Virus record (IMG/VR): IMGVR_UViG_3300027754_000069
Coordinates: 18,689-82,688 of that record
Length of the DNA: 64,000 bases
Source: a virus
Reading direction: 5' to 3' (one strand)
Shown: positions 13,455 through 59,350 of the stretch, in pieces
Numbering within the stretch: position 1 is the stretch's first letter
Layout of the letters: each line of letters starts with the position of its first letter
The notes under the pieces: generated by a model
The model's database searches: none
Seen by the model: only the letters and a program-made list of their open reading frames with translations
What the model was told of the DNA's origin: nothing
Translations under genes and position numbers: made by a program

Positions 13455-14102
13455 CTAATCGTCTAGTGCATTAATCAATGCTGTTAATGCTTGAGCTCCT
13501 TGGTCAGCAATTATACTATTGATATCAGAATCAGGCGGTAACGACACGCGCATGGCTTGAGGTATTGCATCTACTAATCTGCGAGCCAAGTCCTGTCCTG
13601 GATTAGAACCATCTTCTTTAACATCGTTATCTGTGGCTACAATTACTCTACCTATGCCATCAAAACAACGTGAGAAATAAGGCTTCCAAGCGTTAACGCC
13701 AGCAACAGCGACAGCAGGATGCCCAGCAAGAGTAGCAGATATCGCATCAATCTCTCCTTCAACTATTAATACCTCCCTTACAGCATGAATGATTGCGTTG
13801 ACATTATATAGATGGTGCTTCTGACCAGTAGGTATCATGTACTTAGGGTCACCATCATCAATCCGACGGAACTTGAACCCGACAACACCAGCATTAGTAA
13901 TATACGGAATAGATAAATGCTTTTTAATTCTGTCTTCATGACCAGCAGCAGGTTCTTCCACGTAGCCCAACAGGAATTGTTGGGCGCCAGCAAGGATGCC
14001 ACGCTTCTCAAGGTACGCCTCAGCTGGTGAACCAGCCAAAGAATTATGATAGGTGTGTGCTGCCTTTGTCCAGAGTTCAATGAGCTTAGGATTGGTTCTC
14101 AC
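13455..14102 (-). CDS. DNA primase catalytic (Toprim) half
   Basis: YLEKRGI, IPY, KFRR, KY, VEGEIDA, DND. Confidence 0.9.
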   Translation of the reverse strand: MRTNPKLIELWTKAAHTYHNSLAGSPAEAYLEKRGILAGAQQFLLGYVEEPAAGHEDRIKKHLSIPYITNAGVVGFKFRRIDDGDPKYMIPTGQKHHLYNVNAIIHAVREVLIVEGEIDAISATLAGHPAVAVAGVNAWKPYFSRCFDGIGRVIVATDNDVKEDGSNPGQDLARRLVDAIPQAMRVSLPPDSDINSIIADQGAQALTALINALDD

Positions 14103-14629
14103 TTCTTCTCCTGTCTATGTGTAATGAATGGAGGCGCAGTATACACATCATTACGAGCAGCAATCTGCATTGCTTGCTTCCATGTTGCCCCGCCTGCCAG
14201 TGCGCCAAGAGCCCATGATGAGCCAGACCCTATCCCATACAGACCATCGTCACGCAGGTATACAGAATAGTTATCATCTACTTGGTAGATGGTGCCGTTG
14301 ATTGCTAATAAAAATTCAAACCCAGCATCCTCGTCATCCTTACTTGGGGTATAGCCAGAATCTTTGATGCACTCTCTCATGCTAGGTACAACTGTTGTAA
14401 TCATAAAATGATATTCATCTTTAATGTTAGCTGGGATAGTTGGTGGTTTCCACACGTGCTGCATCACATCGCATGGTTGTACGTCACCAGCACCAGCAAC
14501 CAACCACTTGCCACGTTTAGTTATCTTAGTAACTATCGGATGCGAGAATGGTCTACCGCCTGCGGTAGTACGTGAGTCGGCTGCAAATATGCAGCCGTTG
14601 TCTTGTTGGATACCAATGATAGTTGTCAC
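14099..14629 (-). CDS. Proteasome-beta/HslV-like N-terminal Thr (Ntn) hydrolase
   Basis: GTG start overlapping upstream stop gives (M)TTIIG..AADSR..K..AG..GSGS..ALGAL..D.YT. Confidence 0.85.
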   Translation of the reverse strand: MTTIIGIQQDNGCIFAADSRTTAGGRPFSHPIVTKITKRGKWLVAGAGDVQPCDVMQHVWKPPTIPANIKDEYHFMITTVVPSMRECIKDSGYTPSKDDEDAGFEFLLAINGTIYQVDDNYSVYLRDDGLYGIGSGSSWALGALAGGATWKQAMQIAARNDVYTAPPFITHRQEKK

Positions 14630-14958
14630 AGTGAAGCCCTCAATCTTGGTGGCGTCCAACGCCCACTTGACTTCTTACGTCCACGAGTTGGAGCAGACTG
14701 CTGTGATTCCTTGCCAATGTTTTTCTCTGCCCACTTACGAGCTTCTGGGTATGTTAGCTTCTCACGAGCCATGATTATCTGTATACCAGAACCACTTCCG
14801 CTACATGCATAACATACCCAGACGCCCTTGTCTGAGTTTACTGAAGCAGACTTACGTGAGTCGTCATGTACAGGACACAAGATTGATTTCTCCCCGCCAA
14901 GTGGCAAGGTCAATCCGTAATGACTGAAGACTGCTTCTAAAAACTCAGACTGATTCAT
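14626..14958 (-). CDS. DNA primase CHC2 zinc-binding half
   Basis: CPVHDD..SASV...CYAC..G. Confidence 0.9.
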   Translation of the reverse strand: MNQSEFLEAVFSHYGLTLPLGGEKSILCPVHDDSRKSASVNSDKGVWVCYACSGSGSGIQIIMAREKLTYPEARKWAEKNIGKESQQSAPTRGRKKSSGRWTPPRLRASL

Positions 14959-16007: not shown

Positions 16008-16169
16008 TTAAGGTCGGCGGTTTAATCTATAAAGATTTTCCCAGTACTTTAACGCAACTTCATCCGTAACTGCAAGATATTGTAACCTTTTTCTTTTTTG
16101 CACACCAAGGTAGGCAAGTACATGCCACTTAATCCAAGCACCACGTATATAGATGGTTGGCTTAATCAT
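16008..16169 (-). CDS. 53-aa hypothetical protein (A only)
   Basis: Read manually: MIKPTIYIRGAWIKWHV...; fills the gap and overlaps the upstream stop. Confidence 0.5.
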   Translation of the reverse strand: MIKPTIYIRGAWIKWHVLAYLGVQKRKRLQYLAVTDEVALKYWENLYRLNRRP

Positions 16170-16554
16170 TCTTTAATTCTTTCATCACATCTAATAGGTT
16201 CTCTACCGTAATCAGATAGCCCTTGCTTCTATTCGGTGGTATCTCACAAGTAATCTCTCGACCAAACTTTTTAATTGCATACAACACATGACCAGTTGGA
16301 ACCATGAGCACACCACGTTCAAGTACGAACGCCCAGTATGCAGCTTTAGTTACCATCACACCTGACGGTTCCCAATTCTGGGAACGTCGATACCAGCATT
16401 CAACTTCTATATATAGGTTATTGGTTGACCACCATTTGCGGTCACGTTTAACTTCTACTGTGCCACCTTCGGTCAGTAGTTGATTTACTAGTGACTCGCC
16501 TTCTTGACCAAATCTAAAATCTAAATCAAATGACGATAGATTTTCTACTGCCAT
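16162..16554 (-). CDS. Putative PD-(D/E)XK-fold nuclease (A allele)
   Basis: FDLD..G..GE, VEVKRD, NLYIE, SG..T.A.YW. Confidence 0.6.
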   Translation of the reverse strand: MAVENLSSFDLDFRFGQEGESLVNQLLTEGGTVEVKRDRKWWSTNNLYIEVECWYRRSQNWEPSGVMVTKAAYWAFVLERGVLMVPTGHVLYAIKKFGREITCEIPPNRSKGYLITVENLLDVMKELKND

Positions 16555-17378
16555 TGCGATAACGTTCTTGCTCTATGTAAATCAGATGGAGAGTTGTAAA
16601 GAACCATCTTGCTTGCTTCCGCCGATAAAGTTACATAGCTTTCTGCAGTTGGGTCTGCCTTGCCATGTCTGTTCTTTACAACAGCAACTCGATAATTAGA
16701 GGAAGCACTATCCAGAGCCACCGAAAGGACCAACTCTGGTAGTGCTGCCACCTTACCCATCAATGCTTTACGTGGTGCTGGGTAGTTCGGCTTAGACATC
16801 TTCTCATTCTCGGAAACGTGGTGCAGGACGATGAATGCCGATTCATACTCACGAGCCATGTAGTGAAACGCTGACATGGCATCGCGTAGTGCAGTCCACT
16901 CGTTATCACTTGCGGATGCTACGTTCATTAAGTTGTCTACATATACAGCAGTAGGTGCCGAACCATGCAATTCAATCCACGCTTCTATCTCCTCTTCAAT
17001 GTCTTGAAGAGAAGGTGCTGGGTCGAACGCGAATCGTACATGGTCGGCACCTTCCGCTAGCGCATCCTCAAGGAGAACGCTTGCTTCGGTATCCATCAAT
17101 CTTTCTACATCAGCAACATCTTTATTCATAAGTATTGCACCAGCGCGAGTAGCGATGGTACGTGAATCAGAGTCAGCTGATATATATAACGACGGAACCT
17201 TAGATGTAATTGCGTACCATAATGCAAGTAGTGTCTTACCTCCGCCTGGTTGACCAGCGACCAAATGCAATTGCGCTTGGCGAAAGACAACTTGACTGGC
17301 TGTGAGTTGAGGCAGGATTTCTGGTAGTTGATGACCAACTGGTGACTCGACACCCACTACTTGCAAGAGGCTACGCAC
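16545..17378 (-). CDS. DnaB/RecA-like replicative helicase
   Basis: GQPGGGKT, VYVDNL, LHH, VKNRHG. Confidence 0.9.
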   Translation of the reverse strand: MRSLLQVVGVESPVGHQLPEILPQLTASQVVFRQAQLHLVAGQPGGGKTLLALWYAITSKVPSLYISADSDSRTIATRAGAILMNKDVADVERLMDTEASVLLEDALAEGADHVRFAFDPAPSLQDIEEEIEAWIELHGSAPTAVYVDNLMNVASASDNEWTALRDAMSAFHYMAREYESAFIVLHHVSENEKMSKPNYPAPRKALMGKVAALPELVLSVALDSASSNYRVAVVKNRHGKADPTAESYVTLSAEASKMVLYNSPSDLHRARTLSQWQ

Positions 17379-18523: not shown

Positions 18524-18752
18524 CGTACTCTTCCTCTGGTCGGTCAGGTTTCACATAGTCTGGATGGTCAACTGGTGTGGGGGTTGTCATAGGTGAACCG
18601 CAATCAGCACAGAAAGAATCCGTGAACCACATGACCAAGTCGTAGTCTTGGAAGATAGCCCTGATAACCTGAATGTTTGAACCGCAGTTCACACATTCAT
18701 TACTAGGGATACCTCGCTGGTCAATCAAGTTGTTGTTGTTTGTAGAGCTCAT
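18510..18752 (-). CDS. Zn-ribbon protein between the nuclease halves
   Basis: CxxC..CxxC..TPVD; homolog at 60474..60704. Confidence 0.8.
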   Translation of the reverse strand: MSSTNNNNLIDQRGIPSNECVNCGSNIQVIRAIFQDYDLVMWFTDSFCADCGSPMTTPTPVDHPDYVKPDRPEEEYDEFN

Positions 18753-21741: not shown

Positions 21742-21941
21742 TCACGATTCTTTCCAGCTACTAGTTCATACAGGCTGTCAACACGAAGTTCTAATCTATC
21801 GAGTGAGTCACGCATCGAGCTGCCTGAATTTGGTTTCAATTCTGTGAGGTAGTGTTTTACTAACCAACGAACTGAGCCAGCAAAGCTGGCAACTATTGTG
21901 GCAGTGGCAACAGCCAAGCCAGCCCATTCGTTGGTAGACAT
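21738..21941 (-). CDS. Single-TM lysis-module membrane protein
   Basis: TM segment plus ELKPNSGSSMRD coiled segment. Confidence 0.75.
   Translation of the reverse strand: MSTNEWAGLAVATATIVASFAGSVRWLVKHYLTELKPNSGSSMRDSLDRLELRVDSLYELVAGKNRE
21749..21847 (+). repeat. Exact repeat, copy 1 (at least 99 bp; matches 63902-64000)
   Basis: Base-by-base comparison. Confidence 0.9.
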
Positions 21942-30559: not shown

Positions 30560-32176
30560 TTATACGTCAGCTTTTTTACTACGACGTCCAAGAGAGGACG
30601 CATCAATTGCTGATTTCTGTGCAAACATTGCACGTTCTTTAGAAGCTAATCGCTTCTTCTTCATTGTTACATCTGCGCCACCTGCAAGAGCAAGCTCTTC
30701 ACGAGCTAGATCTTGAGTGCCACCTTGTTCACCATAGAGACCTGTAAGTCTTTGGTAATCGGCTTGGCTTGCAGCTGCAGACTGGAAGGCTGACTCTGCT
30801 TGAGCACCTTTACCAGATGTGTAAATTTCTTCTGCGAAAGCTTTGTCAGATAGTTGACCAGCACGTGCAGCAGCACCACCGATTTCGGCTGCGCCGTACA
30901 TCTTCTTAGCTTCTTCGGTTGTGTACTTAAACTTAGAGTTAACTAAGTCAAAAGCCTTTTCGCTGTCAAGCATATATGCAGCAAGTTCGCCTTCTGTCCA
31001 ACCGTAATATTCTTTAAGAGCATTCTTAGTGCTGTAATCAGCATTTTGCAAAGCATTCTTTGCAATATTAACACGGTCTGTAAGTTCGCTTACGCTGACT
31101 GAGTTTTCAATAAGACGACGGAAGTCGTCTTGTGTATCATAGAAACCAGTTGGTAATCCAGCCTCACGAAGAATTGATTCGTATCCTTTTTCTGCTTGGA
31201 TGTATTCGTATGGTGTAAGAAGCTTATCGCCAGGTCGACCCTTGCCATCCTTCATACGTGCAGCAATTGTTTCATTTGCAGCAAAACGAGTCTTATATGC
31301 CTCACTGTCATAAATACTATTAAGGATCTGAGCATCGGTTGGCATAATGTTTTCTTCATATACCTTATCGATTGCCTTATTTAATGAATCAATAAATCCA
31401 GCACCAAGACCTGTGTTCTGAAACATCTTTAATACGGAATCTTTAGCACCAAAATCTGTGTATGTATCAACCATGTTGCCCATGGTTCCATCTGACATAA
31501 CCTGCCAGACTTCTACAACTCCACCAGTTTTACGAATAGTCTTTTCGTATGCAACAGTCTTTGCTACTGGCTTATTAAATGTAGCCTGCATTGCTGCAAT
31601 TTGATTAAGCAAATCTGCAATCTGTGTATCAACTGCACCAGTTGCTGCAGTTACTGGATTAACAAATGTTGTAGATCCGCCATAGGTAGCAGTCGAAGTG
31701 CTTGTTGCTGTACTTGTCGCAGTGCTGGTCGCAGTGCTGGTCGCAGTGCTAGTCGCAGTAGAGGTCGCGGTGCTGGTTGATGTTGCTGTTCCAGTATCGC
31801 TTGGTGTATATGGTAAATTTTCAATTGGTGCAGATGGTGCAGCAGGAGCTGCTGGTGCTTTTGGCAGTGGTGGCTCTGTATAAATCTTAGTGCCAGACCA
31901 AATCATAGAACCATTGTTATACTTTGGATTGTTATCAATTGTTGGGTTGATAGCAAGAAGTTCTTTAACTGTCATGCCATTGTCTTTAGCAATTTGCCAG
32001 AATGTATCTCCTGGTTTTACTGTAACAAATTCACGTGGTGCTGGTGCTGAAGCAGCAACTGTACCTGACTTAGATGCAGCGGAAGCATTCTTCTCACTAG
32101 CCGTCATTCCATAATCAGCTACTGCTGACGCAAGCGGTGAATAATCTCCGCCATCTGACATATAATCTCTTGGCAT
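30560..32176 (-). CDS. LysM-containing internal virion (ejection) protein
   Basis: TVKPGDTFWQIAKDNGMTVKELLAINP; (TATS)n linker; helical C-terminus. Confidence 0.75.
   Translation of the reverse strand: MPRDYMSDGGDYSPLASAVADYGMTASEKNASAASKSGTVAASAPAPREFVTVKPGDTFWQIAKDNGMTVKELLAINPTIDNNPKYNNGSMIWSGTKIYTEPPLPKAPAAPAAPSAPIENLPYTPSDTGTATSTSTATSTATSTATSTATSTATSTATSTSTATYGGSTTFVNPVTAATGAVDTQIADLLNQIAAMQATFNKPVAKTVAYEKTIRKTGGVVEVWQVMSDGTMGNMVDTYTDFGAKDSVLKMFQNTGLGAGFIDSLNKAIDKVYEENIMPTDAQILNSIYDSEAYKTRFAANETIAARMKDGKGRPGDKLLTPYEYIQAEKGYESILREAGLPTGFYDTQDDFRRLIENSVSVSELTDRVNIAKNALQNADYSTKNALKEYYGWTEGELAAYMLDSEKAFDLVNSKFKYTTEEAKKMYGAAEIGGAAARAGQLSDKAFAEEIYTSGKGAQAESAFQSAAASQADYQRLTGLYGEQGGTQDLAREELALAGGADVTMKKKRLASKERAMFAQKSAIDASSLGRRSKKADV
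31695..31795. repeat. 12-bp tandem repeat encoding (TATS)n
   Basis: GTCGCAGTGCT(G/A) units. Confidence 0.8.
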
Positions 32177-32180
32177 TTAC

Positions 32181-33407
32181 TTACCCCAGGAATCCGAAGT
32201 CGCGGAGAATCGTTGATGCAATCTTGGTCTTCTCCTCTTTTGCTGTGCTTGTGTAATCCCAGTTGCCAGAACGACGAGCCATTTTCTTGGCATCGTAAAG
32301 GTTCATGGTTCCAACATTTCCTTTTTCATCTGTGTAGTTAAGGGCTCGTTGTACATAATCATTGTTAAGATCTAGTGAGTTAACATCCTGTTCCCATGTA
32401 TCAGCAATTGCTGTTAACCATGGATCGGCTGCGTCGCGTAGCGTCTTGCCTTGAGATAATTGTGTTGTAAGACCAGGAAACATTGACATTGCTCGCTTTT
32501 GAAGTTCATTATCTAGATCTTCTGCGTTAAGAGTTCCAGCAATAAGACCTTTCATGCTGTTCTCAAACCAGCCTTCGAATCGTGTATTAGACATGCTGTT
32601 AGGGAAACCATATTCCCATGCTCGCTTGTAAAGCTCGTTGGCTACAGTCTCTAATTTGCCAGTTAGGTTATAGATTGTTTTGTCGCCAATAACACTCTTT
32701 TTGCTAAAGTCAATTGCCTTAGACATAATCTTATTAAGAAATTCTTGGTCGTAGCGAACAACCTTTCCATCTTTAATAATAGCTGACTGCATCATTTGCT
32801 GTGCATAATCAATAGCTTGTGCTGCTGTAATGTTTATACCATTACCCATAAATTGCTTAACAATGTTGCTTGCATTAAGTTGCAAGTCTGCAGCGTATTG
32901 ACCTGGGTTAGTTTCTTTATAATAAGCGTATTGACGCTGAGTATCAGTTTGGTTCTTGTACCAAGTAGTACCCTGAATCATCTGAGTCATCAATGCCTCA
33001 GATGTAATTCCTTGTTCAAGGATTGAATTTAAGATATTCTTGAGGCTGTCATCAGCACCAATAACACCAGCAGCAATACCAAACTTGGCTTGTAATGTAG
33101 CCATGTCTAGCTTATCTACGTTTGTTGCAGCCTGTGTTGATGTACTTGTAGATGTTGCAGTAGAAGTTCCAGTACTAGTTCCTGTATTATTGCCACTGGT
33201 TGCATTGTTAACTGCTGTGTTTAAGCCAGTTGATGCACCAGACTGTGTTGGCATCTGAAGGACAGTACCACTAAAGATTGTGCTTCCGCCGTTATATTTT
33301 GGATTAGTCTTTAAGAATGGATTGGCTGCAATAATCTTTGCGGTTGTTGTTCCGTTAGCAGCTGCAATTTTACTAAGCGTATCGCCAGTTTTAACTGTAT
33401 ATGCCAT
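32181..33407 (-). CDS. LysM-containing internal virion protein
   Basis: YTVKTGDTLSKIAAANGTTTAKIIAANP. Confidence 0.75.
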   Translation of the reverse strand: MAYTVKTGDTLSKIAAANGTTTAKIIAANPFLKTNPKYNGGSTIFSGTVLQMPTQSGASTGLNTAVNNATSGNNTGTSTGTSTATSTSTSTQAATNVDKLDMATLQAKFGIAAGVIGADDSLKNILNSILEQGITSEALMTQMIQGTTWYKNQTDTQRQYAYYKETNPGQYAADLQLNASNIVKQFMGNGINITAAQAIDYAQQMMQSAIIKDGKVVRYDQEFLNKIMSKAIDFSKKSVIGDKTIYNLTGKLETVANELYKRAWEYGFPNSMSNTRFEGWFENSMKGLIAGTLNAEDLDNELQKRAMSMFPGLTTQLSQGKTLRDAADPWLTAIADTWEQDVNSLDLNNDYVQRALNYTDEKGNVGTMNLYDAKKMARRSGNWDYTSTAKEEKTKIASTILRDFGFLG

Positions 33408-39747: not shown

Positions 39748-41226
39748 CTACTTTCTTGAAGCTTCGTATGCTTTCGCTGCTTTAGATCCTGGTACATATG
39801 GAACTGGACCTGTATACATTGGCTTAGGAGCTGGCTTGTTATTAGGGATCTTCACTGTTGTGTTTCGATAAATCTTGCGAGGATCTTTAATTTTCTTATT
39901 AGCTGCTAGTAACTCTGAAAGAGTTACGCCAGCCTTCTTAGCAATACCTGAAAGTGTGTCACCGTGTTCAACTTTGTAATCAGTAGTTGTTCCACCAGGA
40001 CCGATCTTAAGACCTTTACCGCCACCCTTTGGATACGCACCTGCTGGACGCTTAGGCAATGCTGTTAGACCTGCAGCTGCTGCTGCAGTTGTCTTTCCTT
40101 TTAATCCACCTGGAACTGCACGACCATAAGATGCGTTAGTCATCTTATCTTCACGACCGCGACCAAATGGCTTTCCTGAATTGATCATGTCCCAAGTTGT
40201 GCGATCCTTGGTATCTTTGCTTAATGCTTTATGAATAGGACCTGCAGCAAGAGATGCTGCTGTAATTGCAAGACCGACTTTACCGCCAGTTGCTTTCCAT
40301 GCGCCTTTACCAATTGCACGTGCAACTGTGCCTGCAGTAACTTTCTTAGCTGCTGACTTAGCACCAGTTGTAGCAACTGTGCCTGCGCCCTTCTTTGCAA
40401 CTACTGCAGGAAGGTTAGGTGTTCCGCCTTTAGCAATACGAACCGCTTCGCCCTTTGACTTACCTGACGCAACCGCTGCCTTGTACCTATCAACTTCTGC
40501 TGCTGTCTTAAGTTCACCTGCTGCTGCAACACCTGTTTTAATTTTTGGTGTTGTTACTGTTGGCTTAGTTGTTGTTGGCTTAGCTGTTGTTGTGCCTCTT
40601 GTTGCTGCCCAGTTCTTACGTTCTGCTGGTGTCATCTTTGCCCATGCTGCTTTATTAGCAGCAGACTTTTCTGCACGAGTTACGCCAGGCTTCTTAACGC
40701 CAGGCTTTGGCGAGAATCCCTTGTTAACCTTTGGAGGTTTATTTGGCGGTGTTTGACCACCACCTGCAGCAGCAACCTTTGGTTTAGGTTTTGATATTGT
40801 TTCAGCGGTTCCAGAAACTGGACGAGTTGTCAACTTCTTCTTTGATTTTGGTTTTGGCTTCTCTGGTTTAGCTGCAGCAGGTGCTGTTGCTTTAGCAGGA
40901 GCAGATTTAGCTGCTGCTGCATCTTCTTTTGCATACATGCGATCAACTGCAGCTCTAGCCTCACGGCGATCACGAGCAATTCGCTCTTGTGCTGTTTCAG
41001 TTGGCTTACTAAATACTTTATTTCCGCGATCATCGGTAATGTAACCTGCCTTGGCTTCTTTCTTTACTTCTGAAAGAACTGCCTTATCTTCTGCAGATAC
41101 TTTTGCCATAGGGTCACGGCGTACCGCCTTGGTCTTTCTACTTGTGAAAGCTCCCTTGGCATCGGCTACAGCAGCTTTACGCGCCTGCTTAAACTTCTTC
41201 GGAGCTTTTGGTTTCTTTGCTGCCAT
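39748..41226 (-). CDS. Histone-H1-like K/A/P/T-rich protein with C-terminal LysM
   Basis: Composition; YKVEHGDTLSGIAKKAGVTLSELLAAN...IY....KIP. Confidence 0.8.
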   Translation of the reverse strand: MAAKKPKAPKKFKQARKAAVADAKGAFTSRKTKAVRRDPMAKVSAEDKAVLSEVKKEAKAGYITDDRGNKVFSKPTETAQERIARDRREARAAVDRMYAKEDAAAAKSAPAKATAPAAAKPEKPKPKSKKKLTTRPVSGTAETISKPKPKVAAAGGGQTPPNKPPKVNKGFSPKPGVKKPGVTRAEKSAANKAAWAKMTPAERKNWAATRGTTTAKPTTTKPTVTTPKIKTGVAAAGELKTAAEVDRYKAAVASGKSKGEAVRIAKGGTPNLPAVVAKKGAGTVATTGAKSAAKKVTAGTVARAIGKGAWKATGGKVGLAITAASLAAGPIHKALSKDTKDRTTWDMINSGKPFGRGREDKMTNASYGRAVPGGLKGKTTAAAAAGLTALPKRPAGAYPKGGGKGLKIGPGGTTTDYKVEHGDTLSGIAKKAGVTLSELLAANKKIKDPRKIYRNTTVKIPNNKPAPKPMYTGPVPYVPGSKAAKAYEASRK

Positions 41227-41228
41227 GG

Positions 41229-41771
41229 TTATCCTCTTCCGATGTAGCCGAATTGACCATTTTTTGTATTTTTAGGCGTCGGCTTTTTAGTTATTTTTGG
41301 TGTTGGTTTAGCCGTTACTTTAGGTGTTGGCGTAGGTGTTGGTTTAATTGTTATTTTAGGTTTTGGTTTTGCTGTTACCTTAGGCGTTGGCGTTACCTTG
41401 GGTTTTACCACTCTTGGCTTAGGCTTAACAGTTACTGTTGAAGTATCCACTGGTGTAATCACTGTTGAAGTATCCACTGGTGTAGTTACCGTTGAGGTAT
41501 CTTCTGGTGGAATAATTACTTTTGGTGGGACTGTTGCTTTAGGCGTAAGGGTTGGCTTAACTACCTTTGGCTTAGGTTTTGGTGTAGCAGTTGGCTTGGG
41601 TGTTGGCTTTACTACCTTAGGTTTAGGCGTTGGCGTAGCTGATGGTTTAGGTTTTGGTGGAGGATTATCTCTAACCATGCCTTTTTCAAATCGATAAATA
41701 CCCTTGGGGAGCGAACTCATCGGTTTCCAAGTTTTTGATTTGCTATCGTAATACCATCTACTGTCAGCCAT
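41229..41771 (-). CDS. Pro/Lys/Thr repeat protein (B only)
   Basis: PTPK/PKV repeats and three DTSTV units; AAGGA SD. Confidence 0.7.
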   Translation of the reverse strand: MADSRWYYDSKSKTWKPMSSLPKGIYRFEKGMVRDNPPPKPKPSATPTPKPKVVKPTPKPTATPKPKPKVVKPTLTPKATVPPKVIIPPEDTSTVTTPVDTSTVITPVDTSTVTVKPKPRVVKPKVTPTPKVTAKPKPKITIKPTPTPTPKVTAKPTPKITKKPTPKNTKNGQFGYIGRG

Positions 41772-55502: not shown

Positions 55503-56150
55503 TCAGTTGTTAATTGCATTAACTAAATCAGCTAATGCTTGCGCTCCTTGGTTGACAATTATACTATTAACATCGCTATCTGGCGGTAGCGACACGCGGA
55601 CAGCTTGAGGGATTGCATCCTGCAATCGACGAGCAAGTTCCTGCCCTGGATTAGAGCCATCCTCTTTAGCATCGTTGTCAGTACAGATTACAACAGTGCC
55701 AATCCCATCAAAACACCTACTAAAATAAGGCTTCCAAGCATTGACGCCAGCAACGGCAACCGCTGGGAACCCAGCAAGAGTCGCACTAATCGCATCTATT
55801 TCTCCCTCTACTACTAGCACTTGGCTAACTGCATTAACTATTGCACTGACATTGTATAGGTGGTGCTTCTGACCAGTAGGTATCATGTACTTAGGATCCC
55901 CGCCATCAATGCGACGGAACTTAAACCCAACTACACCAGCCTCTGTTATATAGGGGATGGATAGGTGATGCTTAAGTCTGTCCTCATGACCAGGTGCTAC
56001 CTCGGCTACGTAACCTAGCAAAAATTTTTCGGCTCCATCAAGGATGCCACGTTGTGTTAGGTACGCCTCTGCTGGTGAACCAGCAAGGCTGTTGTGGTAC
56101 TGATGTGCTGCTTTAGTCCAGAGATCTATGAGTTTGGGATTAGTCTTCAT
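55503..56150 (-). CDS. DNA primase Toprim half
   Basis: VEGEIDA, DND. Confidence 0.9.
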   Translation of the reverse strand: MKTNPKLIDLWTKAAHQYHNSLAGSPAEAYLTQRGILDGAEKFLLGYVAEVAPGHEDRLKHHLSIPYITEAGVVGFKFRRIDGGDPKYMIPTGQKHHLYNVSAIVNAVSQVLVVEGEIDAISATLAGFPAVAVAGVNAWKPYFSRCFDGIGTVVICTDNDAKEDGSNPGQELARRLQDAIPQAVRVSLPPDSDVNSIIVNQGAQALADLVNAINN

Positions 56151-56677
56151 ACTTTCTCCTGCCTGTGCGTAATGAATGGAGGTGCAGTGTATACATCATT
56201 GCGAGCAGCAATCTGCATTGCTTGTTTCCATGTTGCACCACCCGCTAGTGCGCCTAGTGCAAAGCTTGACCCTGACCCTACGCCATACAGCCCATCATCA
56301 CGTAAGTATACAGAATAAGAATCATCTACTTGGTAGATAGTTCCATTGATTGCAAGTATAAACTCAAACCCAGCATCTGCATCATCCTTATCTGGTACAT
56401 ACCCTGACTCCTTGATGCAATCTCTTATGCTTGGTGCAACAGTTGTAATCATAAAGTGATACATGTCTTTGATGTTAGCTGGTATAGCTGGCGGTTTCCA
56501 CACATGTTGTATCACATCACATGGTTGCACATCACCAGCACCAGCAATTAACCACTTACCCCGCTTGCTAATCTTAGTAACAATTGGATGTGAGTATGGT
56601 CTGTTCATTGCAGTGGTGCGTGAATCGGCTGCAAGAATGCAGCCGTTGTCTTGTTGGATACCAATAATTGTTGTCAT
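56147..56677 (-). CDS. Proteasome-beta/HslV-like Ntn hydrolase
   Basis: MTTIIG..AADSR..GSGS; ATGA overlaps at both ends. Confidence 0.85.
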   Translation of the reverse strand: MTTIIGIQQDNGCILAADSRTTAMNRPYSHPIVTKISKRGKWLIAGAGDVQPCDVIQHVWKPPAIPANIKDMYHFMITTVAPSIRDCIKESGYVPDKDDADAGFEFILAINGTIYQVDDSYSVYLRDDGLYGVGSGSSFALGALAGGATWKQAMQIAARNDVYTAPPFITHRQEKV

Positions 56678-57000
56678 CGAGATCGTAACCTTGGTGGTGT
56701 CCACCGCCCACTCTTCTTACTGCGACGATTGTGAACAATCGGAGTAGAAGATTCTTTGCCAATATTTTTTTCAGCCCATGACCGAGCTTCTGGGTATGCT
56801 AAATGTTCACGTGCCATGATGATCTGTATACCAGAACCACCAGCAGCACATGCATAGCATACCCAGACGCCCTTGTCTGAGTTAACTGAAGCAGATTTAC
56901 GAGAGTCGTCATGCACTGGACAGAGAATAGACTTCTCACCTTGCGGTAAGTCCAATCCATAATGATTAAAGACTGCTTCAAGAAACTCAGGCTGGTTCAC
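56674..57000 (-). CDS. DNA primase CHC2 zinc-binding half
   Basis: CPVHDD..CYAC. Confidence 0.9.
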   Translation of the reverse strand: MNQPEFLEAVFNHYGLDLPQGEKSILCPVHDDSRKSASVNSDKGVWVCYACAAGGSGIQIIMAREHLAYPEARSWAEKNIGKESSTPIVHNRRSKKSGRWTPPRLRSR

Positions 57001-57770: not shown

Positions 57771-58024
57771 ACATAGTCCGAGCTAAGAATAGATTCTAAT
57801 TGGATACCAAGTTGTCTACGCATCTGCATTCTAACGCGAGGAACTGTGCCACCCCAGATACCGAAAGCTTCGTGACGCATGCCCCACTCCAAACATTCTT
57901 TAATTACTGGACAACTACTGCAAATCTTTTTTGCTATTGGAACAATGCTTACATCATCTTCTGGATAAAAAAATTCAATGCCAACCTCTTTACATAAAGC
58001 TTCACTAAAGTCTGGATACTTCAT
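57767..58024 (-). CDS. whiB: WhiB family transcriptional regulator
   Basis: Four Cys plus GIWGG. Confidence 0.95.
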   Translation of the reverse strand: MKYPDFSEALCKEVGIEFFYPEDDVSIVPIAKKICSSCPVIKECLEWGMRHEAFGIWGGTVPRVRMQMRRQLGIQLESILSSDYV

Positions 58025-58526
58025 TGATTAGCACCTCTATCGGTTGTAGTTGATCAGCGTCCATAACTAATCGGATGCCGTAACCATAGTCATGCTTGTA
58101 ATGATTTGCAAGAAATAATTCTCGTGTCGTCCAACCAAGTATTGAGAATTTACTATCTACATGTGGCAACTGTTTATCGCCAAAGAACTGCACCAATACT
58201 GCATAGTCAGATACAAATAACTCTGGTGCATTAAAGATTAATTTATCTAATGTCGATGTCTTGACTTGTATATTTTTTCCCAGTGGTGTAGATAAGTCGT
58301 GTCCATTATCACCACTCGGCGAAATCGATCTGTCCACCTGAAGCCCAAGCCCTTTGCCACACGCCATCTCACCGAGCTGACCCATAAGATTAACCGAATA
58401 CGATGAATTGTTTCTGTCAAATTTTTTGTCAACAACTTCATATTGTTTTTTGTTTTCTCTCACTAGGTGGATGAAGCGAAGCGCATCCATAGTCTCATCT
58501 AAAGTTAGTTCAATATCTATTGCCAT
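58005..58526 (-). CDS. Putative PD-(D/E)XK-fold nuclease (B allele)
   Basis: G..GE, D.GHDL, IQVKT, LGW; not alignable with the A allele by eye. Confidence 0.6.
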   Translation of the reverse strand: MAIDIELTLDETMDALRFIHLVRENKKQYEVVDKKFDRNNSSYSVNLMGQLGEMACGKGLGLQVDRSISPSGDNGHDLSTPLGKNIQVKTSTLDKLIFNAPELFVSDYAVLVQFFGDKQLPHVDSKFSILGWTTRELFLANHYKHDYGYGIRLVMDADQLQPIEVLINEVSRL

Positions 58527-59350
58527 TGACGCATAGTCCTTGCTCTTTGCAATTCACTAGGTGAGTTATACAAAGTCATATGGCTTGCCTCCGCTGACAG
58601 CGAGATGTAAATCTCTGCTGTTGGGTCAGCCTTACCATGTCGGTTCTTCACTACAGCAACGCGGTAAGCATTTGCCTGTCCGTCTAGTGCAACACTAAGA
58701 ACCAACTCTGGTAACGCTGCAACCTTACCCATCAATGCCTTACGCGGAGCAGGATAGTTAGGCTTAGACATCTTTTCGTTCTCGGATACATGGTGCAGAA
58801 CGATAAATGCTGACTCGTATTCACGAGCCATATAGTGGAACGCTGACATTGCATCACGCAATGCAGTCCATTCATTGTCGCTTGTTGAAGCAACATTCAT
58901 CAAGTTGTCTACAAAGATTGCTTGTGGTGCAGAGCCGTGCAGTTCTATCCAAGCTTCTATTTCTTCTTCGATATCTTCTAACGAAGGCGACGGATCAAAG
59001 TTGAATCGAACATGCCCTGCACCATCAGCGAGTGCATCCTCTAAAAGAACGGATGCTTCAGAGTCCATCATCTTCTCAACGTATGCTACTTCTCTCTCCA
59101 TAAGGATTGCCCCTGCGCGAGTGGCTATTGTTCGGGAGTCAGAGTCAGCTGAAAAGTAAAGCGAAGGAACTTTAGAATTAATTGCGTACCACAGTGCAAG
59201 TAGTGTCTTACCACCACCAGGTTGTGCTGCTATCAAATGCAATTGCGCTTGACGAAACACTACCTGTGATTGAGTAAGTTGTGGCAATATCTCTGGAAGC
59301 ATATGACCAACAGGAGATTCAACTCCCACTACCTGCAACAGTGAACGCAT
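58517..59350 (-). CDS. DnaB/RecA-like helicase
   Basis: Homolog of 16545. Confidence 0.9.
   Translation of the reverse strand: MRSLLQVVGVESPVGHMLPEILPQLTQSQVVFRQAQLHLIAAQPGGGKTLLALWYAINSKVPSLYFSADSDSRTIATRAGAILMEREVAYVEKMMDSEASVLLEDALADGAGHVRFNFDPSPSLEDIEEEIEAWIELHGSAPQAIFVDNLMNVASTSDNEWTALRDAMSAFHYMAREYESAFIVLHHVSENEKMSKPNYPAPRKALMGKVAALPELVLSVALDGQANAYRVAVVKNRHGKADPTAEIYISLSAEASHMTLYNSPSELQRARTMRQWQ

Follow-up and report, generated by a model that had tools for sequence, protein, structure and literature searches.

Within a 64,000-nt stretch of viral DNA (positions 18,689 to 82,688 of IMG/VR record IMGVR_UViG_3300027754_000069; hereafter the window, whose numbering is used throughout), a gene for an N-terminal-threonine peptidase lies between the genes for the zinc-binding and catalytic subunits of a two-gene primase. 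The peptidase is probably a phage-borne group-I proteasome homologue (HslV/BPH-like, phrog_1040), encoded by a mobile accessory gene with a function not tied to the primase. Its wedged position appears, from comparison of related loci, to be a lineage-specific variant of gene order and not a primase-processing system. The enzyme type has already been catalogued; the novelty is modest and lies in the gene order seen here and in the occurrence of the enzyme in WhiB-carrying actinobacterial phages.

Identity and predicted fold of the peptidase

The peptidase gene is found twice in the window (copy A, 14099 to 14629; copy B, 56147 to 56677; both on the minus strand) because the 82.7-kb record holds two related phage genomes of ~41-42 kb each, joined head to tail. 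Both copies encode 176 aa and share 88% amino acid identity. The original prediction, made from the letters of the window, had proposed a proteasome-beta/HslV-like Thr1 hydrolase with intact motifs and no propeptide, and each of these features was confirmed. Read from the start codon that overlaps the preceding gene, the N-terminus is M-T-T-I-I-G, with Thr directly after Met. The open reading frame (ORF) remains open for nine or ten codons further upstream, where TTG- and GTG-started versions would give 186 and 185 aa; these longer forms are unlikely to be the real product because nearly all homologues begin exactly at M-T-T. Alignments started from residue 1 in nearly all of 150 representatives, and close family members were 172-190 aa long. 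Among 33 aligned members, T2, K35, G48, and G134-S135-G136 (ORF numbering) were invariant in all 33, D18 and T164 were nearly so, and D161 was present in the window sequence. The equivalent catalytic set in the proteasome family is Thr1, Asp17, Lys33, Gly47, Ser129 (of GSG), and Asp166/Ser-Thr169, and the D-x-x-T motif is kept. Between the two copies, the dN/dS of the hydrolase gene was 0.087, comparable to that of the primase and helicase genes. Taken at the level of sequence, the middle gene thus encodes an intact Thr1 hydrolase of the compact group-I type, evolving under purifying selection.

Profile and structure searches placed the protein nearest to BPH and HslV. The family phrog_1040 ("peptidase HslV family") matched residues 1-174 of copy B (E = 1.4e-28), PF00227 matched copy A with E = 9e-4, and both the PHROG and JGI annotations label the family "HslV". 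When the profile of the 33 members was searched against the PDB, BPH (5ovu) was the best match over the full length (1.7e-12), followed by HslV (3ty6, 5e-12), with 20S beta5 subunits far lower. An AlphaFold2 model of the peptidase (pLDDT 94.4, pTM 0.90) was ranked by Foldseek closest to BPH (5ovs, TM-score 0.77), then to HslV, Anbu, and 20S beta subunits. At a cut-off of E ≤ 0.001, the search retrieved 1081 PDB chains; the highest-ranking ones listed all belonged to the proteasome family. Among viral structures in BFVD, 44 matches were obtained at the same threshold, the best with a TM-score of 0.88, and these came from many unrelated phages. The predicted fold is a compact alpha-beta-beta-alpha sandwich, as in BPH and HslV. 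Connectase, an enzyme that had been raised as a model for ligation of the primase halves, was absent from the best 60 PDB sequence matches and from the top Foldseek matches, leaving the idea of a connectase-style ligase without a counterpart among the relatives retrieved.

That no partner ATPase accompanies the peptidase, as also proposed originally, extends to the whole 82.7-kb record, in which no AAA/AAA_2 unfoldase was detected: PF07724 had no match anywhere, and the only matches to PF00004, P-loop signals below threshold, fell within the gene for the DnaB-like helicase. A plausible course of events in the infected cell would begin with removal of Met by the host methionine aminopeptidase, exposing Thr1. 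The peptidase would then assemble as a stacked homo-oligomeric ring and, as a self-compartmentalised enzyme, act on peptides or unfolded proteins. It might work alone, as has been proposed for BPH (PMC5777263), or be fed by an AAA+ unfoldase of the host, a route considered because the phage encodes none.

The three-gene locus and the mobility of the peptidase gene

In both genomes, the zinc finger (ZnF) primase gene, the peptidase gene, and the Toprim primase gene follow one another on the minus strand, chained by the (G/A)TGA overlaps that had been noted at the outset. In copy A, the zinc-binding subunit of the primase (110 aa with a CHC2 zinc finger; 14626 to 14958; PF01807, E = 2.1e-11) precedes the peptidase, which is followed by the primase catalytic subunit, a 215-aa RNA polymerase core of the DnaG type that includes Toprim (13455 to 14102; PF13362, 1.9e-8; PF13155, 1.2e-6). 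In copy B, the zinc-binding subunit (108 aa; 56674 to 57000; PF01807, 3.7e-11) is 80% identical in amino acid sequence to that of copy A, and the Toprim subunit (55503 to 56150; PF13362, 9.5e-9; PF13155, 1.7e-8) again has 215 aa. Both junctions of copy A read GTGA, such that the GTG start of the hydrolase overlaps the CHC2 stop and that of Toprim overlaps the hydrolase stop, whereas both junctions of copy B read ATGA. In copy A, GAGG is found 7 nt 5' of the hydrolase start and AGGAG 5 nt 5' of the Toprim start. The same gene order occurs on more than 40 independent IMG/VR contigs and is therefore not an assembly artefact.

The peptidase gene is transcribed in the same direction as the replication genes and is translationally coupled to them. 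From this coupling, the original prediction had drawn an enzyme that processes or ligates the primase halves, or else interferes with host proteolysis or defence. A primase-directed peptidase, made in fixed ratio with the primase subunits, would trim, degrade, or ligate them, for example by removing the basic tail of the ZnF subunit or by joining the two in the manner of connectase. The 4-nt overlaps that chain all three genes in both copies are consistent with such a role; start/stop overlaps are, however, the norm across this whole operon-like genome, and the protein groups with BPH and HslV, not with connectase. A wider view was obtained from a gene-neighbourhood survey of 48 close loci, 80 loci down to 47% identity, and 80 loci from a distant sub-family, in which genes were called and neighbours labelled by iterated hidden Markov models and PHROGs; counts were made over 58 non-redundant clusters at 80% identity. 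A primase gene was the direct neighbour of the peptidase gene in 7 of the 58 clusters, while in 48 neither a primase nor a helicase gene adjoined it.

Gene order changed with distance from the window peptidase. At 67% identity or more, the order was ZnF, peptidase, Toprim, and its stability on the contigs down to this level is among the points in favor of a primase-directed enzyme, as is a further sub-clade in which the peptidase gene directly follows Toprim. At ~60% identity, the order was ZnF, Toprim, peptidase; at 55-59%, the peptidase gene followed DnaB and was itself followed by a gene for SSB or a resolvase, ZnF and Toprim lying at a greater distance. Elsewhere in this clade, which is well supported, the peptidase gene adjoined genes for an M23 peptidase, thioredoxin, an exonuclease, or unknown genes. 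Recurrent neighbours elsewhere were WhiB (6), metallophosphoesterase (5), resolvase (3), HNH endonuclease (2), and a histone-deacetylase-like gene. In the cultured phage F5, whose homologue shares 41% identity, the peptidase gene lies directly after the portal gene, 11 kb from a two-ORF primase. The maximum-likelihood tree resolved at least five arrangements within the 15-row clade holding the window's type. Homologues were thus largely scattered over unrelated contexts, with varied positions even in the closest clade, and processing or ligation of the primase halves, as inferred from coupling, was not supported by the survey. These data suggest that the peptidase gene is accessory and has changed its place several times among phages of this family.

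Several smaller features of these neighbourhoods were recorded. An extra Cys-containing ORF of 68-72 aa lies between the peptidase and Toprim genes in two loci (L087:4534-4740 and L088:4525-4743), and a related 97-aa ORF is found near the peptidase in L111; small genes thus appear to be inserted preferentially at the peptidase/Toprim boundary. In one sub-clade (three clusters), the peptidase gene directly follows a gene of the histone-deacetylase family (L125:3088-3981, L126:3077-3985, L127:3061-3984; PF00850, E = 1e-54 for the L125 ORF), which is unusual for a phage. Small acidic proteins encoded downstream of the peptidase in L045 and L001 matched no family in Pfam or PHROGs. A conserved small partner protein was considered and rejected because downstream neighbours differ among loci.

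The primase itself is encoded as two separate polypeptides. A simple frameshift joining its halves had been called unlikely, and in the window lineage it is impossible, as 531 nt of another gene intervene between the two ORFs. In F5, the primase comprises a 129-aa ZnF ORF and a 208-aa Toprim ORF, which share 152 nt at their ends, read in different frames, and locus L045 has the same overlapping two-ORF layout. Together with L103-L108, these relatives have a two-gene primase with no peptidase gene between or near its ORFs, a second finding that speaks against primase processing. Because relatives lacking the insertion already have two primase ORFs, the two-gene primase is ancestral, older than the insertion of the peptidase gene and independent of it. 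In the window lineage, the peptidase gene would have landed in this pre-existing ZnF/Toprim boundary and gained start/stop overlaps, and co-expression with the replication genes would follow from them. The biochemistry of T7 gp4 and DnaG points to a zinc-binding domain that can cooperate with the catalytic domain of a different subunit. A two-polypeptide primase is therefore plausible, and, by analogy, the window primase probably operates as two separate chains, its zinc-binding subunit working in trans.

At its C-terminus, the ZnF subunit has a basic tail (..SGRWTPPRLR.. in copy A) with a motif conserved in L045 and F5. The tail, with the consensus SGRW/Y-x-P-x-R, is encoded at 14626-14700 and 56674-56745 of the window. 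In loci lacking the insertion, F5 included, the coding sequence of the tail and the beginning of the Toprim ORF have 146-152 nt in common, read in different frames (L045:4302-4447, L219:1360-1511); either both frames are truly coding, or a programmed frameshift there could yield a fused primase. As a conserved element with no assigned role, the tail is the remaining argument for a peptidase directed at the primase; set beside the position of the gene in most clusters and the relatives with an uninterrupted primase, that reading is highly improbable. We regard as similarly improbable a lineage-specific recruitment to the replisome, whereby the peptidase would trim or turn over the ZnF subunit (e.g., its basic tail) and so tune primer synthesis, or, in a broader variant, would serve as a phage-supplied compartmental protease for proteome recycling in Nanopelagicales. 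Were trimming or turnover of the ZnF subunit true, a phage proteasome homologue would have its first substrate. For the primase link, the practical result is negative: the gene order is lineage-specific and the two-gene primase ancestral.

The preferred reading, a mobile group-I homologue not tied to the primase, has points that weigh against it. For PF00227, copy A scores 19.4 bits and copy B 22.3 bits, in both cases just short of the gathering threshold of 22.4. Several sub-lineages have the peptidase gene within or alongside the replication module, with ZnF, Toprim, or DnaB as its neighbour; a looser link to replication proteins is conceivable, albeit one that may reflect the shared synteny of related phages. 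We infer the substrate, oligomeric state, and unfoldase dependence of family members. Finally, the host assignment given below is drawn not from the window phage itself but from marker genes, one binned contig of a metagenome-assembled genome (MAG), and the homologue of a cultured relative, which shares 41% identity.

Phage restriction, probable host, and alternative roles

Searched by blastn against 50,697 GenBank phage records, the 1.5-kb locus had no match, and relatives there were found only at the protein level. The best peptidase matches in the phage database were OX376640 and OX376641, the genomes of phages E7 and F5, with the 41% identity extending over the full length. Across 185,579 species genomes, close homologues occurred only on two short MAG contigs, one of them binned as Candidatus Nanopelagicus. 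Of 31 sampled genomes from the family of that MAG (Nanopelagicaceae, the probable host family), 27 had no PF00227 match, and the clade profile matched in 5 of 301 genomes of the host phylum, mostly in fragments at contig ends. Neighbours in the protein Atlas, with a stored homologue as the query, were 79-100% viral. The enzyme is therefore phage-borne, and most of its probable hosts have neither a proteasome nor HslV.

The window phage encodes WhiB, a sigma factor, and a glycosyltransferase, and has 44.6% GC and a genome of ~41 kb. The cultured Planktophila phages E7 and F5 carry the same three markers (PMC10202952). This match in gene content, GC, and size, together with the homologues above, makes a freshwater actinobacterium of the Nanopelagicales (acI) the most likely host.

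In copy A, the module holding the peptidase gene runs from a Cas4-like nuclease, a 158-aa protein, and the DnaB-like replicative helicase (16545 to 17378, minus strand; copy B, 58517-59350, phrog_243, E = 2e-75) through a variable slot, WhiB, a resolvase, and a 125-aa protein to ZnF, peptidase, and Toprim, and continues with MazG-like, HNH, sigma factor, and glycosyltransferase genes. An accessory, mobile, and phage-restricted gene among early genes, near WhiB, the sigma factor, the glycosyltransferase, and HNH, could encode a counter-defence or takeover protease with a specific target, be it an immunity protein, a regulator, or ubiquitin-like/Pup conjugates, and might dock to a host AAA+ unfoldase. 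However, no conserved partner or target gene travels along with it, and, unless an adaptor is present, ring proteases with this fold usually lack specificity. Hijacking of a Pup-proteasome is unlikely, since the probable host family mostly lacks a proteasome, as the PF00227 search indicates. Overall, we consider a counter-defence role unlikely.

The location of the homologue in F5 and E7, directly after the portal gene and upstream of a giant internal-type protein, instead points toward the virion. A morphogenetic or virion-associated protease could be packaged into the procapsid, or act on it or on internal proteins, and would perhaps be delivered with the DNA. Two further observations are in line with this: the head module of the window yielded no recognised prohead protease, and in the 552-aa family member P0205 the peptidase domain is the N-terminal part of a fusion whose remaining region, placed through its relatives L130 and L131, lies in L131 in an ORF between the portal and putative major capsid genes. 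In the window and most relatives, by contrast, the peptidase gene is in the replication/early region, and the 325-aa capsid protein, which has a separate small upstream gene, shows no obvious need for processing. A virion role is accordingly rated as quite unlikely for the window peptidase.

The C-terminal region of P0205 matched no family in Pfam or PHROGs. The corresponding ORF in L131 (7398-9050; ~550 aa), between the portal and putative major capsid genes, is 84% identical to P0205 in this region, and the N-terminal domain is swapped, being HslV-like in P0205 and 2H-phosphoesterase-like (HITLVY, HITLAY) in L131. Proteins of the P0205/L131 type look like head-module proteins with exchangeable cargo. 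In the window, a 180-aa gene after the portal gene (41229-41771, minus strand) was considered as a second proteasome homologue and rejected: it encodes a low-complexity protein rich in Pro, Thr, Lys, and Val, in which TPKPK and VDTSTV units recur and for which no family matched. Lysozyme/transglycosylase-like segments (phrog_380, phrog_4602) were found in three large structural-module proteins (30560-32176, 32181-33407, and 39748-41226, minus strand), and three such cell-wall hydrolase-like segments are unusually many for a 41-kb genome.

The two genome units of the record are collinear in gene order and share 65-80% nucleotide identity. A 283-bp stretch with 89% identity stands at the start of each unit, and the junction lies near 21860. 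The head-to-tail arrangement probably reflects the joining of two co-occurring strains during assembly rather than a true concatemer. The variable slot between the helicase gene and WhiB holds unrelated genes in the two units, encoding proteins of 130 aa and 53 aa at 16008-16554 vs. a single protein of 173 aa at 58005-58526.

Comparison with known systems

Proteasome-like peptidases are widespread in tailed phages, and the present clade abounds in phages of the dominant Actinobacteria of fresh water (acI/Nanopelagicales), bacteria with streamlined genomes that for the most part contain no proteasome or HslV. By both sequence profile and structure, the closest known protein is BPH (PDB 5OVS/5OVT/5OVU; PMC5777263). 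Like the window peptidase, BPH is compact, lacks a propeptide, has Thr right after Met, and has no known ATPase partner. With only ~21-23% identity, the phage peptidase is a relative of BPH and not a member; BPH is moreover cellular, whereas the window clade is phage-borne. BPH forms a tetradecameric double heptameric ring, and a ring is what we infer for the phage peptidase. HslV (ClpQ; HslUV) shares the M-T-T-I N-terminus, the GSG and D-x-x-(Y)T motifs, and the profile match given above. Unlike the HslUV system, the phage record has no gene for HslU or another AAA+ protein. In addition, the sequence match to HslV falls into two stretches, and its TM-score (0.66-0.67) is lower than that of BPH. 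HslV is a dodecamer of two hexameric rings. Connectase differs in its affiliation, as the matches of the window peptidase are led by the group-I proteins BPH and HslV and not by connectase or group-II proteins.

The primase pair resembles primases of the DnaG/T7 gp4 type in combining a CHC2 zinc-binding domain with a Toprim RNA polymerase core. It differs in that the two domains are separate gene products and not one polypeptide, and in that no C-terminal helicase-binding domain was detected in the window primase, the ZnF subunit bearing the basic tail instead.

Among cultured viruses, the nearest counterparts are LanE43AprF5 and LanE43AprE7 (OX376641/OX376640; PMC10202952), which share the MTTIIG start, 41% identity over the full peptidase, and a two-ORF primase, as well as genomes of ~39-42 kb with 44-45% GC that encode WhiB, a sigma factor, and a glycosyltransferase. 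In F5, unlike the window, the peptidase gene follows the portal gene at a distance of 11 kb from the primase, whose ORFs are adjacent and overlap by 152 nt. With a homologue present in the cultured pair of Planktophila LanE-43 and phages E7/F5, the function of the enzyme is experimentally reachable, and this route to the first substrate of a phage proteasome homologue is the main value of the finding.

The group-I homologues BPH, HslV, AAH, CPH, and PPH were catalogued by Fuchs, Alva, and Lupas in 2021, with AAH, CPH, and PPH found in phages; no phage proteasome homologue had a known substrate or purpose, and no Actinobacteria-specific phage encoding AAH was reported (PMC8665760). The window peptidase resembles AAH, CPH, and PPH as a compact group-I homologue that radiates from BPH and is carried by tailed phages. 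The PPH subunit has ~140 residues (PMC8665760), compared with 176 aa here, which makes the window peptidase too long to be a PPH. The clade described here is common in WhiB-carrying freshwater phages, including the cultured phages of Planktophila, and is a modest extension of this catalogue.

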